DNA from: an uncultured Planctomycetota bacterium
Lineage (GTDB): Bacteria > Planctomycetota > Planctomycetia > Gemmatales > Gemmataceae
Assembly: GCA_963849325.1 (NCBI GenBank)
Contig: CAWKHF010000012.1
Span: 608,001-672,000 of the forward strand
Direction: 5' to 3'
Length of the DNA: 64,000 bases
The notes beneath the pieces are model-generated. The model was given only the letters and a program-made list of their open reading frames with translations. It searched no databases and was not told where the DNA came from. Each line of letters opens with the position of its first letter. The first letter of the stretch is position 1. The translations under genes were made by a program, and so were the position numbers. Below, in pieces: positions 33,032 through 36,001 of the stretch.

Positions 33032-34099
33032 TCAGGGGATGAGCGTTGCCCGCCATTGCTCATCGAGTTCCTGGACCGTCTTGCCCGTCAGCGTCTGGAA
33101 CGCTTCCTCCTTGTACTTGCCCTCGCGCATCAACTGGTTAAGTTTGCGCACGAGTCCCTTGTCGTATTTCTCGGTGACGTAGGCCAGGAACGCCGCCGTT
33201 ACCCGATAGCTGCCGTTGTAGTGGGCTCGCTTCGGATTGATGGGTCCCAGCTTGCCTGGCTCGTACTTGAAGAAGCGGATGTAATCGGCGATGCCCTCCA
33301 CCAGCCAGCCTGGATTGCCCCGAGAACGATAATCCTGCACGATGTGGACCGTCTCATGGACCATCGCGCCAACGTCCTGGGGGCGGTCCTTGAACCACTT
33401 CACCGAACCCGTGATGCGACCGCCGCCGGCCGCCGCCACGCCTCGATAGTCCTTCCGCAGTGTCATCTTCACCACACGCCGCGGCCGGAAGCCGTCGCTC
33501 TTCAGTTCCTCGTTAATCATCGGATATTGGCGCTCGCAGATGCGCGCGGCCTTGTCGGCCCAGTCCTTCATCTCCGGCGCATCGCTCACGTCCACGACGA
33601 ACTCGACGGGATACTTGAAGATCGCCACCGCCGGATCGGACTCGATGGTGATCTCGCGGACGGCCAGCGGGTGCGGCAAGTCCGCGGCGGGTTTGATCCG
33701 AATGGCCTTGATCTGCCGGTCCGCGGGCCGAGCACGGGCAACTCCGTCCGCGAACTTCGCCACGGACTCGAACTTGTCGCCGTCCGCCGAAACCTCCAGT
33801 GTCCCCGCGTCGAGCTGGTCGCGTCCCTCGGGCCGGCCGGTGGTGACGACGAGGGACTTCACGGCCACCAGCTTGTCGAGCACCAGCGTGAAATGATCGC
33901 TCGCGCCGACGTTCTTCTCCGAAGCGAAAAACGTCGCGGGATCGCCGTCGAAGGCGAGCTGGCGGATGTGATCGGCATCCGTTGTCAGCGTCGTTTCGAT
34001 GGTCGCGGCCACCGGCGATTTCGCTGGCTTCGCGGTTGGTGTCTCCCGCGCCAGGCATGGCAGTGCGACGAGGAAGAGGAACGGAAGCAAACGTCGCAT
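33032..34099 (-). CDS. Secreted basic-secretory-protein (BSP) family metallopeptidase-like protein with N-terminal discoidin-like domain
   Basis: Signal peptide; AFDGDPATFF; MVHETVHIVQ (HExxH); GWLVEGIADYIR. Confidence 0.85.
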   Translation of the reverse strand: MRRLLPFLFLVALPCLARETPTAKPAKSPVAATIETTLTTDADHIRQLAFDGDPATFFASEKNVGASDHFTLVLDKLVAVKSLVVTTGRPEGRDQLDAGTLEVSADGDKFESVAKFADGVARARPADRQIKAIRIKPAADLPHPLAVREITIESDPAVAIFKYPVEFVVDVSDAPEMKDWADKAARICERQYPMINEELKSDGFRPRRVVKMTLRKDYRGVAAAGGGRITGSVKWFKDRPQDVGAMVHETVHIVQDYRSRGNPGWLVEGIADYIRFFKYEPGKLGPINPKRAHYNGSYRVTAAFLAYVTEKYDKGLVRKLNQLMREGKYKEEAFQTLTGKTVQELDEQWRATLIP

Positions 34100-34110: not shown

Positions 34111-34623
34111 CTATTCTGGATCCCTGGAATGGCAACTACCCCCGGCAGGACTCGAACCTGCGGCCGTCGGTTTAGAAAACCGATGCTCTATCCTCTGAGC
34201 TACGGGGGCAAATAATCGATCTACTCCCAAGTAATCGCTCGCTGCCCACTTGGCATTGGGGTCGAAGCGAACCCAGATTTCGGCTGCCATAGTGGCCGGT
34301 ATTTCATCCGTCCTCAGATAGTAGACCTTATCGGTATCCGGGCAGTAGACCGCAAATCCATCGATTTTCGTTCGATCCAGAATACATGACGTACATCCTC
34401 CACTCCAGCTGTAGCAACTACGCAATCGTATACTGAACTTATTGTCTTTGCGTGTGGAATACCGAACTTGCACTCTCCTCAGTAGACAATCGGCATTCAC
34501 TAACACCAGGTCAAAAGGTAGGTGTTCTGTAATCGGTATACACGCCTTGACGCCCGCCTTGGCGGCTTCGGCAATAACCGCAGCCACCGCCACATCGCCC
34601 TTCTCTTTCGTATGGTGGCTCAT
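34111..34623 (-). CDS. PD-(D/E)XK endonuclease, I-Ssp6803I-like (group I intron-associated family); ORF overlaps the whole tRNA-Arg gene
   Basis: MSHHTKEKGDVA..P..EHLPFDLV..RRVQVR..IDGFAVYCPDTDKVYYL; GGAGG RBS 4 nt upstream of ATG; visibly lower GC than flanks. Confidence 0.82.
   Translation of the reverse strand: MSHHTKEKGDVAVAAVIAEAAKAGVKACIPITEHLPFDLVLVNADCLLRRVQVRYSTRKDNKFSIRLRSCYSWSGGCTSCILDRTKIDGFAVYCPDTDKVYYLRTDEIPATMAAEIWVRFDPNAKWAASDYLGVDRLFAPVAQRIEHRFSKPTAAGSSPAGGSCHSRDPE
34137..34209 (-). tRNA. tRNA-Arg (anticodon UCU); CCA not encoded
   Basis: GCCCCCG-TA-GCTC AGAGGATA GAGC-A-TCGGT TT TCT AA ACCGA-CGGCC-GCAGG TTCGAGT CCTGC-CGGGGGT-A forms a complete cloverleaf. Confidence 0.96.
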
Positions 34624-34682
34624 ATTACCTCCTCGGGAGCGGCGGTGCATTGTCCCTTATGCTACGGGAGCCTTCGCTCCCG
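34624..34682 (-). ncRNA. tRNA-like structured leader / partial tRNA remnant lacking the T-arm
   Basis: CGGGAGC-GAAG-GCTCCCG-TA-GCAT AAGGGACA ATGC-A-CCGCC GCTCCCGA GGAGG-TAAT-(ATG). Confidence 0.6.
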
Positions 34683-34685
34683 GTC

Positions 34686-34714
34686 ATTAGAGCAAACCCG
34701 AATAGGGACAGCAA
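34686..34714 (-). promoter_or_regulatory. Putative sigma70 promoter for leader-nuclease-tRNA unit
   Basis: TTGCTG-17 nt-TCTAAT with TGn extension. Confidence 0.45.
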
Positions 34715-34757
34715 CCCATGCCGTGTCCTCCACCATCGGCGTGAGTGAACGCGACTG

Positions 34758-35513
34758 CTATCTCAGCACCTGGATGAGCTTGACGAGCACCACGTCGGCG
34801 ACGAGGACGAGGAAGATGGACACGACGACGCCGCGCGTGGCGGCCTGACCGACGCCCTCGGTGCCGCCGCGCGCGTTCATGCCGAACCAGCAACCGCTGA
34901 CGCCGATCAGGTAGCCGAACACCACCGTTTTCAGCACGGCCGGGATGGCGTCGCTCAAGGTGAGGACGCGCAGGCACTCCGTGCGATACTGCGTCCAGGA
35001 CAGGCTGCCGCCGAGCGCCTCGGCGACGAAGCCGGCGCCCAGCGCCAGATAGGCGATGAACAAGGTCAACAACGGCAGCGCCACCATGCAGGCGAGCAGA
35101 CGCGGCGCCACCAATTCCCGCAGCGGCGAGAGGCCGAGCACTTCCAGAGCGTCGATTTGTTCGGTCAGCCGCATCGATCCCAGTTCGGCCCCGAGACTGG
35201 CGCCGGAACGGCCGGCGACGAGAAGGCCGGCGGCCAGCGGCGCGAATTCGAGCACCACGGCCAGGGACAGCGCTTGCGGCAAATACTGCACGGCGCCCGG
35301 CCCGCCCACCGTCTGCAAGGAGCCGCGCAGGTGCAGCCAGACCACCGCGCCGATGGCGACCCCCGCTGCCACGCCCAGTGGCAGCGCCCCCAGCAGGATT
35401 TGATGGAGCTGGACGTGCAGAGAGGACAACCGGCGCAGGGCAAACGGCAACGCCAGCAGCGCTCGTCCGGCGAAGTAGATGGCGTGTCCCAGGCTTTCGA
35501 GGAAGGCGAGCAT
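34758..35513 (-). CDS. MlaE-family ABC transporter permease
   Basis: VVLEFAPLAAGLLVAGRSGASLGAELGSMRLTEQIDALEVLG; GGTEGVGQAATRGVV. Confidence 0.92.
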   Translation of the reverse strand: MLAFLESLGHAIYFAGRALLALPFALRRLSSLHVQLHQILLGALPLGVAAGVAIGAVVWLHLRGSLQTVGGPGAVQYLPQALSLAVVLEFAPLAAGLLVAGRSGASLGAELGSMRLTEQIDALEVLGLSPLRELVAPRLLACMVALPLLTLFIAYLALGAGFVAEALGGSLSWTQYRTECLRVLTLSDAIPAVLKTVVFGYLIGVSGCWFGMNARGGTEGVGQAATRGVVVSIFLVLVADVVLVKLIQVLR

Positions 35514-35530
35514 CCCAAACCCAGCGAGCG

Positions 35531-35579
35531 GGGTTGCGTCCGCGCCCCCAGGGTCTACCTCGGGGCGCGGATGCAACCC
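35531..35579. repeat. REP-like hairpin
   Basis: GGGTTGCGTCCGCGCCCC ... GGGGCGCGGATGCAACCC. Confidence 0.7.
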
Positions 35580-35602
35580 CGCTCGCCGGGGAGCAATCCC
35601 TT

Positions 35603-36001
35603 CTATACCTCGACGAGGCTCTCTTGGGGCCGGACGCGAACCGCTGCGCTGCGCCGCCTCAGCTGCTCCTTGCGGAATAAATCCAGAAGGTCGAACCGCA
35701 GTTCCAGGTCGTGAACGCCGCGGCGGTCCCACTCGCGGAGGACGTGCGACGTGGCCGGGTTGAGTCCGGCGATGTGGTGCAGCCAGGTGATGCCCGCGTC
35801 CAGGGTCAGATGGCGGGTACGCGGATGGTGCCAGGCGGCGTGCGTCGCCAGGCAGCCCATCGGCACGGCGCGGGTGAAGCAGCCGTGGATAAGTAGCGGA
35901 CTACTCTTTTGCAGCAACTCCACGAGGCGGTCCAGGCCCGCGTCGGTGAGATGGGGCAGCCACGCCGACCGCAATTCACCCAGGCATTCGGGAGAAAGCA
36001 T
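35603..36001 (-). CDS. Hypothetical protein (Cys/His-containing)
   Basis: AAAGGAG RBS; TATAAT at 36085-36090 (minus); non-shadow amino-acid composition. Confidence 0.7.
   Translation of the reverse strand: MLSPECLGELRSAWLPHLTDAGLDRLVELLQKSSPLLIHGCFTRAVPMGCLATHAAWHHPRTRHLTLDAGITWLHHIAGLNPATSHVLREWDRRGVHDLELRFDLLDLFRKEQLRRRSAAVRVRPQESLVEV

Follow-up and report, generated by a model that had tools for sequence, protein, structure and literature searches.

Organisation of the locus

The locus described here lies in a 64-kb stretch of DNA from an uncultured Planctomycetota bacterium (the window, by which the whole analysed stretch is meant), where a unit spanning 34715-34111 carries, in 5' to 3' order, a promoter block, a 27-nucleotide (nt) tRNA relic derived from the 5' end, a Shine-Dalgarno sequence, a 170-amino-acid (aa) open reading frame (ORF) and an intact tRNA-Arg(UCU) gene that sits within the frame of the ORF. 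Homing endonuclease genes are thought to persist in essential genes inside self-splicing introns or inteins, and intron-less homing is known generally for the seg and mob genes. The unit is likely to be a homing-endonuclease cassette that has no intron, belongs to the I-Ssp6803I family and has settled in a tRNA-Arg(UCU) gene; cleavage of such genes is predicted for an ancestor of the enzyme. Genomes, loci and contigs are designated by G, L and C numbers, respectively, G000 being the window's own genome. All features of the locus are on the minus strand of the window and are as follows.

34685-34715, minus strand: conserved block, putatively the tRNA-Arg(UCU) promoter, with a putative -35 element (TTGCTG, 34714-34709), a 17-nt spacer and a putative -10 element (TCTAAT, 34691-34686), defined by alignment with G003 and L086
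34645-34671, minus strand: decayed relic of a tRNA 5' end, GCTCCCGTAGCATAAGGGACAATGCAC, corresponding to tRNA positions 1-27 (5' strand of the acceptor stem plus D arm), defined by a tRNA-Arg profile and by alignment to the empty allele
34628-34634, minus strand: Shine-Dalgarno-like GAGGAGG with the ATG 4 nt downstream, from reading of the sequence
34111-34623, minus strand: 170-aa ORF, ATG at 34623 and stop at 34113-34111, with a PDDEXK_5 domain from about 34623-34210, the remainder being the frame through the tRNA gene
34137-34209, minus strand: complete, uninterrupted tRNA-Arg(UCU) (Rfam, 72.1 bits; ARAGORN gives 34136-34210)
34758-35732, minus strand: mlaE permease gene, the upstream neighbour, start codon uncertain (PF02405, 197 bits)
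33032-34099, minus strand: BSP-family peptidase gene, the downstream neighbour (PF04450, 77.6 bits), likely start ATG 34099 from reading of the sequence

The tRNA-Arg(UCU) gene is the sole tRNA that ARAGORN reports in the window and the only Arg(tct) among the 92 tRNA calls of the genome (8.16-Mb assembly). The ORF begins at the same Met-x-His-His-Thr-Lys as its homologues and its nuclease domain ends at about residue 138. There is no stop codon ahead of the tRNA, the first base of which directly follows codon 138, and the last ~32 residues are encoded by the tRNA gene and the bases that follow it. GC content is ~0.50 across 34150-34600 compared with 0.62-0.71 in the flanks, in agreement with the original prediction, made from the letters of the sequence, of a lower-GC unit between mlaE and the BSP gene. 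That prediction was also correct in calling a complete tRNA-Arg(UCU), and in placing a 170-aa ORF between this and a partial tRNA; the ORF and the order of elements hold, but the ORF does not end before the tRNA. The acceptor 5' strand and D arm of the partial tRNA are supported (34671-34645) but its proposed anticodon arm is not, and the distance from the partial tRNA to the ATG is 21 nt rather than the 4 nt given. The absence of a ribozyme core was upheld, since the tRNA is uninterrupted and Rfam returned no Intron_gpI match at E≤10 at the locus. Equally, no adjacent integrase or transposase had been seen and none was found among the 8 neighbouring window ORFs scanned.

Family, fold and active site of the nuclease

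The window ORF matches PF11645 (PDDEXK_5) at 77.7 bits over profile positions 1-120 of 138, well clear of the Pfam gathering score (cut-off 26.1), while no family match was obtained for the protein in NCBIfam. A profile of the window protein and its paralogues finds I-Ssp6803I (2OST) with an E value of 6e-10, compared with 0.003 for the protein alone. The AlphaFold2 (AF2) model of the window protein, made with 75 aligned relatives, has a predicted local distance difference test score (pLDDT) of 92.5; an earlier model from 11 sequences (pLDDT 52.5) was discarded. The first-ranked Foldseek match of the model is 2OST_A (E 1.5e-9, template modelling (TM) score 0.79/0.74, root-mean-square deviation 2.9 Å, 138 columns). 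By sequence and predicted fold the window ORF is a member of the I-Ssp6803I family, as the original prediction had proposed.

D10, E33, D38 and Q52 are present in the window protein and position 54 is Arg where the relatives have Lys; the putative catalytic roles of these five positions are assigned by alignment to the family. The QVR that had been read in place of QVK is therefore real (residue 54 is Arg). The companion claim, that Val replaces the acidic residue of the first helix, was not confirmed, because Asp10 aligns to the Asp of I-Ssp6803I and is almost invariant among the 75 relatives. The C-terminal W-A-x-D-Y motif is also kept, and there is a 7-residue deletion relative to the paralogues.

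Empty and occupied alleles of tRNA-Arg(UCU)

In the related genome G003, the block GTTGCTG...TCTAATG stands 15 nt upstream of an uninterrupted tRNA-Arg(UCU), i.e. the site is empty. In the window, 13 nt separate the matching block (34715-34685) from the 27-nt relic, after which come the ribosome-binding site, ORF and tRNA. The protein encoded by the metagenome contig L086 shares 67% identity with that of the window; this contig has the upstream flank of G003 plus relic, ORF and tRNA, and thus represents the occupied form of the G003 locus. At tRNA-Arg(UCU), presence and absence of the unit are accordingly seen at the same locus among relatives, with flank and promoter in common between G003 and L086. 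It is the conservation of the block that suggests its role as a promoter. When aligned with the empty allele, the relic matches the genuine 5' end of the tRNA column for column, and it is kept in L086; its similarity to the tRNA is ~20/27, and a tRNA-Arg profile scores it at 6.0 bits (positions 2-27), the best of 1240 shuffles reaching 4.3. Folding of the leader revealed no special structure (z -0.79).

Paralogues at tRNA-Ala genes

A clearer example of the same arrangement is L002, at tRNA-Ala(CGC) on contig C10 of the window genome, where a promoter is followed by a 26-base repeat, AAGGAGG, a 152-aa PF11645 ORF, 15 nt and a complete tRNA. The repeat is identical (26/26) to the first 26 bases of tRNA-Ala(CGC) and runs on into CAGCG, which is how this strand of the anticodon stem reads in the empty allele of G002; in the complete tRNA the strand reads TCGCG, and the opposite strand is altered to match. 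It follows that the repeat is the 5' part of the resident gene, broken near the anticodon loop, and that the complete tRNA is a different allele. Empty tRNA-Ala(CGC) sites were read in G002 and G009, and the flank and tRNA matches also abut in G003, G005 and G006. At tRNA-Ala(GGC), five genomes of the genus are occupied and five are empty. No relics were found at the tRNA-Ala(GGC), tRNA-Thr(UGU) and tRNA-Thr(GGU) loci searched.

Further features were seen around PF11645 genes. At three tRNA-Ala(GGC) loci (L001, L005 and L006) convergent PF11645 ORFs finish 1-3 nt from the tRNA 3' end or enter it antisense, and empty tRNA-Ala(GGC) alleles have an AT-rich stretch past the tRNA with a faint resemblance to the final codons of the ORF. 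In L043, 40 nt from the 3' part of tRNA-Gly(GCC) are duplicated at 1321-1360, ~240 nt from the complete gene at 1597-1671 (z 16.5), and a PF11645 gene lies ~330 nt off.

Intron-like inserts and intron-less cassettes in relatives

Relatives of the window gene occur at the anticodon loop of tRNA-Arg(UCU) in two forms. In eight loci (five unique) the tRNA is split at U34|C35 by an ORF-holding insert of 628-690 nt, of which ~230-280 nt are non-coding; the last base is U in the upstream exon and G in the insert. Downstream of the ORF in L138 are GAGACTATACG and AGAGATAGTCC, which by eye resemble conserved group I elements. The exon-end U, the insert-end G and these motifs together suggest that the inserts are group I introns.

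In the second form (L116, L117, L125 and L126), the U34|C35 break holds a 33-57-nt leader, the ORF and a complete tRNA-Arg(UCU) that is entered by the ORF frame, and the 3' half of the resident tRNA resumes 5-16 nt past the complete one. These intron-less cassettes are ~527-548 nt long and have no space for a ribozyme. Removal of the insert restores a tRNA-Arg(UCU) by ARAGORN in 10/10 loci tested. Relics and carried tRNAs agree at 73-97% in local alignments, and the other loci have one relic only, or none. The core of the original prediction, a module that disrupted the resident tRNA gene while providing a complete tRNA of its own, is supported by the empty and occupied alleles, by L002 and by these U34|C35 cassettes. 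Among four close cassettes, those of L126 and L128 are 98% alike with upstream flanks ~75% alike, and in L114 and L128 the flank is 92% and the cassette 93% alike; this disagreement of flank and cassette hints at cassette exchange, AT-rich non-coding flanks giving a high baseline in the measure.

The intron-like relatives raise the question of a cryptic or degenerate group I intron that is still present at the window locus and from which the tRNA is spliced. The clade has intron-borne relatives that Rfam misses, so the Rfam negative is weak evidence here, but the window tRNA is uninterrupted, the relic is just 21 nt away from the ATG, the nuclease domain adjoins the tRNA with 0 nt to spare, and the intron-class loci have a much longer non-coding part; such an intron is very improbable. 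An ORF encoded inside a self-splicing intron was likewise tried as a class for the window gene and rejected, given the uninterrupted tRNA, the lack of an Intron_gpI match and the lack of ribozyme space.

An ORF-less Intron_gpI match was seen at L137 391-620 (42.4 bits, gathering 50), in a tRNA cluster that also holds an ORF-bearing split tRNA-Arg(UCU).

Overlap of the reading frame with the tRNA

The overlap of nuclease frame and tRNA is general among cassettes, there being no stop ahead of the tRNA in 28/31 evaluable loci. The stop lies inside the tRNA in 18 (nine with a TAG ending at tRNA position 10 and five with a TAA in the anticodon loop) and past the tRNA in 10. Close homologues of the window protein end with translated tRNA up to the anticodon-loop TAA; the D loop of the window tRNA is one base shorter and the frame therefore continues to 34111.

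Two loci, L098 and L113 (proteins P0010 and P0012), have ORFs of 227-255 aa in which the N-terminal PDDEXK_5 region is repeated in part, and their frames stop 7 and 37 nt short of a tRNA-Lys(UUU).

Association with tRNA genes

All three PF11645 genes of the window genome adjoin a tRNA gene, namely Arg(UCU), Ala(GGC) and Ala(CGC), and 8/9 PF11645 matches in 41 related genomes do so, the exception being the weakest match (30.6 bits). In a set drawn from many phyla a tRNA lies within 100 nt at 27/37 loci (Thr-UGU 18, Ala-GGC 6, Thr-GGU 2, Ala-CGC 1). Scanning of metagenomes for the clade of the window protein returned 78 loci. Of the 65 unique ones, 46 lie no more than 100 nt from a tRNA, Arg(UCU) in 42 cases; five further ones split a tRNA-Arg(UCU); and 14 have neither a nearby nor a split tRNA, nine of which have a short contig flank. 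The enrichment of homologues beside tRNA genes, which had been proposed as a check, is therefore strong. All four gene-tRNA orientations are seen, indicating that the association is with the DNA and not with a common transcript. The window gene is free-standing, in that it lies outside any intron or intein and beside its conserved target gene. A search of the phylum with the window protein matched 3/401 genomes, i.e. the gene is rare with this query.

Protein clades track tRNA identity, including Ala(GGC) over four phyla. On the clade tree tRNA identity requires 15 label changes, where the minimum is 10, the shuffled mean is 42.5 and 0/200 shuffles were as low, a clustering that is inflated by kinship. 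These patterns bear on the possibility that the locus is a local accident, in which unrelated duplication and insertion, instead of endonuclease-driven repair, produced the 5' tRNA repeat and the ORF, the latter being a mere passenger next to the tRNA. The lack of relics in most cassettes favours such an accident. Nevertheless, the layout recurs at three tRNA types (Arg-UCU, Ala-CGC and, more weakly, Lys-UUU, where L098 has a 5' piece upstream, 1/500 shuffles), the breakpoints coincide with the intron-like insertion site and the clades follow tRNA type across phyla, so that an accident is improbable.

A tRNA gene may also serve as the attachment site of an integrase-borne island or prophage of which the unit is a part. 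A distant relative, L082, has an integrase-like ORF (by eye, no Pfam match) and an HNH_3/NUMOD4 ORF nearby, but the insertions are ~490-550 nt, as bounded by empty-site comparison, the eight neighbouring window ORFs scanned hold neither an integrase nor a transposase, and the repeat is the 5' end of the tRNA, beside the promoter. An island is thus highly unlikely, and the class of integrative islands at tRNA genes was set aside for the window, where those neighbouring ORFs include no integrase, the repeated part of the tRNA is its 5' rather than its 3' end, and the insert is ~0.5 kb.

Two further loci deserve mention. L050 and L052 encode near-identical PF11645 proteins beside tRNA-Ala(GGC) in assemblies labelled Acidobacteriota and Bacillota, which reflects either inter-phylum transfer or a binning error. 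L082 itself (G438; positions 12-590 and 983-1572) is 36% identical and Lys-type, and is ~105 nt downstream of a tRNA-Arg(UCU); its HNH_3 plus NUMOD4 neighbour is a second endonuclease-type ORF.

State of the window copy and selection

Judged from its sequence, the window copy is old and fixed, with a decayed 5' relic, no 3' relic and Arg for the catalytic Lys. Among 73 clade proteins the catalytic position is Arg in 16 and Thr in one, and it is Lys in all eight intron-class loci; the Lys to Arg change recurs, in free-standing forms only, and at least six state changes are needed on the tree. The ratio of non-synonymous to synonymous substitution rates (dN/dS) between the window gene and that of L086 is 0.19 (dS 1.13), indicating that the window gene is kept by purifying selection. 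Most Arg-type pairs have values of 0.05-0.21, similar to Lys-type, and two very close pairs have 0.52 and 0.88. The window protein probably cuts weakly or binds only, and is probably not a fast cutter.

The present role of the protein may accordingly differ from that of its ancestor. One candidate, which is compatible with an origin as a cassette, is a domesticated guard or regulator: the Lys-to-Arg protein would be non-cutting and kept for binding the tRNA-Arg(UCU) gene, shielding the only copy from active phage- or intron-borne relatives or tuning transcription of the ORF and tRNA. We consider this possible rather than probable. The replacement of Lys in 17/73 clade members and 0/8 intron-class loci, its repeated occurrence on the tree, the charge-keeping Arg in 16/17 replacements, the low dN/dS of most Arg-type pairs and the retention by the adjacent tRNA of the anticodon arm of the empty allele all favour it. 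On the other hand, binding is a prediction, the two very close Arg-type pairs have raised dN/dS values, Arg may permit slow cleavage, and Lys to Arg is a single transition for which recurrence is easy. The original prediction had offered a domesticated or attenuated nuclease as its alternative; the comparison supports it, with the replacement confined to free-standing forms and attenuation plausible, yet the gene is under purifying selection.

Evidence weighing against a cassette

Returning to the reading of the unit as a homing-endonuclease cassette in a tRNA gene, a number of observations weigh against it. A consensus promoter scan called no site at 34685-34715, and of the promoter originally predicted it is the conserved block shared with G003 and L086 that stands. 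The pairwise alignment of leader and tRNA is not significant, its score being equalled by 106/2000 and 72/500 shuffles, and Infernal detects no tRNA at the relic, including in a stretch trimmed so that a truncated tRNA could match; since the relic is weak in isolation, its reality rests on its context, namely the position of the tRNA start in the empty allele and L086. No 3' tRNA relic was found at the window locus, and many cassettes have no detectable relics.

An empty mlaE-tRNA-BSP site, such as the original prediction had suggested seeking, was found in none of the 10 genus relatives searched, in a search where most of the tRNA matches retrieved were other Arg isoacceptors. In those relatives mlaE, BSP and the tRNA lie apart, so the empty allele, as read in G003, is at another genomic position and shares promoter and tRNA only. 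In its anticodon arm the window tRNA does not differ from the empty G003 allele, and at tRNA-Ala(GGC) the tRNAs of occupied G006 and empty G003 are identical; a resistant tRNA therefore lacks support at the Arg(UCU) and Ala(GGC) loci, and with it the suggestion that the window carries a cleavage-resistant replacement. With Arg54, the window protein does not have the complete catalytic set, which includes the Lys of Q-x-K. Rfam found no Intron_gpI at ORF-bearing inserts in searches of 20 loci at the gathering threshold, five at E≤1 and the two non-coding parts of L138 separately. Finally, scans by peptide patterns sample subfamilies, and related genomes are non-independent.

Other features of the window and its genome

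The likely BSP start, ATG 34099, is 37 nt past the tRNA and begins a signal-peptide-like stretch. A palindromic repeat of ~65-70 nt at 35519-35590, in or just upstream of the mlaE 5' region, has the appearance of a repetitive extragenic palindromic (REP) or miniature inverted-repeat transposable element (MITE) sequence; similar copies, on either strand, occur at dozens of sites across the window genome and genus relatives (80-88% identity). Elsewhere in G000, contig C4 at ~434300-435175 and contig C12 at 839047-839378 hold tight clusters of short tRNA genes (71-75 nt), those for Ala, Arg and Pro being separated by a few bases; these are possible tRNA arrays.

Discussion

The cassette reading allows the history of the locus to be reconstructed in outline. 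An ancestral enzyme would have cleaved tRNA-Arg(UCU) genes that were uninterrupted, at a point close to the anticodon arm, and repair off an occupied allele would have copied in the ORF plus a full tRNA. The carried tRNA would then have replaced the function of the broken gene, which is the job of the ribozyme in intron-borne relatives. The tRNA promoter would now drive ORF and tRNA in a single transcript, and, as the ORF has no stop ahead of the tRNA, maturation of the tRNA 5' end would sever the message where the nuclease domain ends.

A broader proposal, which we advance tentatively and regard as doubtful in its entirety, is that leader, endonuclease gene and complete tRNA move together as one mobile unit, which would home into tRNA anticodon loops across phyla; the spare tRNA would keep the host alive, where intron-borne relatives rely on splicing themselves out. 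Fixed copies would lose the catalytic Lys and may stay as guards that occupy the only tRNA-Arg(UCU) gene of the cell, their expression tied to it by the promoter and the overlapping frame.

I-Ssp6803I is intron-borne in tRNA-fMet and its homologues are, according to a review, generally cyanobacterial (PMC3384342); a superfamily survey describes a patchy distribution (PMC3424549). The window protein resembles I-Ssp6803I (2OST; group I intron of Synechocystis tRNA-fMet) in Pfam family, fold and tie to a tRNA gene, and its relatives do so in residing in intron-like inserts of a tRNA anticodon loop. Unlike I-Ssp6803I, the window gene is intron-less, at tRNA-Arg(UCU), between promoter and tRNA, overlaps the tRNA and has Arg for Lys.

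Three other systems share part of the arrangement. SegB of phage T4 is a free-standing GIY-YIG homing endonuclease within the T4 tRNA gene cluster (PMC2330249), and is thus, like the window gene, an endonuclease gene among tRNA genes; it is reported to drive inheritance of its own and the flanking tRNA region without an intron. It differs in nuclease family and in acting during phage co-infection, and the abstract mentions no resident tRNA that was disrupted and made good by a carried one. In fungal mitochondria, free-standing homing endonuclease genes are accompanied by partial duplications of atp6, cox1 and atp9 that leave pseudogene pieces (PMC7487136). As in the window, there is insertion at a host gene, duplication of a part, and one whole copy plus a relic; the genes there are protein-coding, the enzymes LAGLIDADG or GIY-YIG and the setting organellar, whereas here a bacterial chromosomal tRNA gene is involved and a whole tRNA is carried in relatives. 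The Jug jumbo phages have 80 PDDEXK_5 genes, all stand-alone (PMC12880540), which like the window gene place the family outside introns; the passage on these genes reports no tRNA link or relic architecture. Literature searches, mostly outside the subscription journals, returned no paper on a promoter-relic-nuclease-tRNA layout in bacteria.

For annotation, short 5' tRNA relics, ORFs that stop inside tRNA genes and 'group I intron-associated' names on intron-less genes all need handling. A single enzyme clade is found in three states at the tRNA-Arg(UCU) anticodon loop: intron-like inserts, cassettes with a replacement tRNA between the broken halves, and old cassettes with decayed relics. These states offer a natural series for how endonuclease genes and introns join or part, and point to a second route into an essential gene, that of bringing a spare copy.

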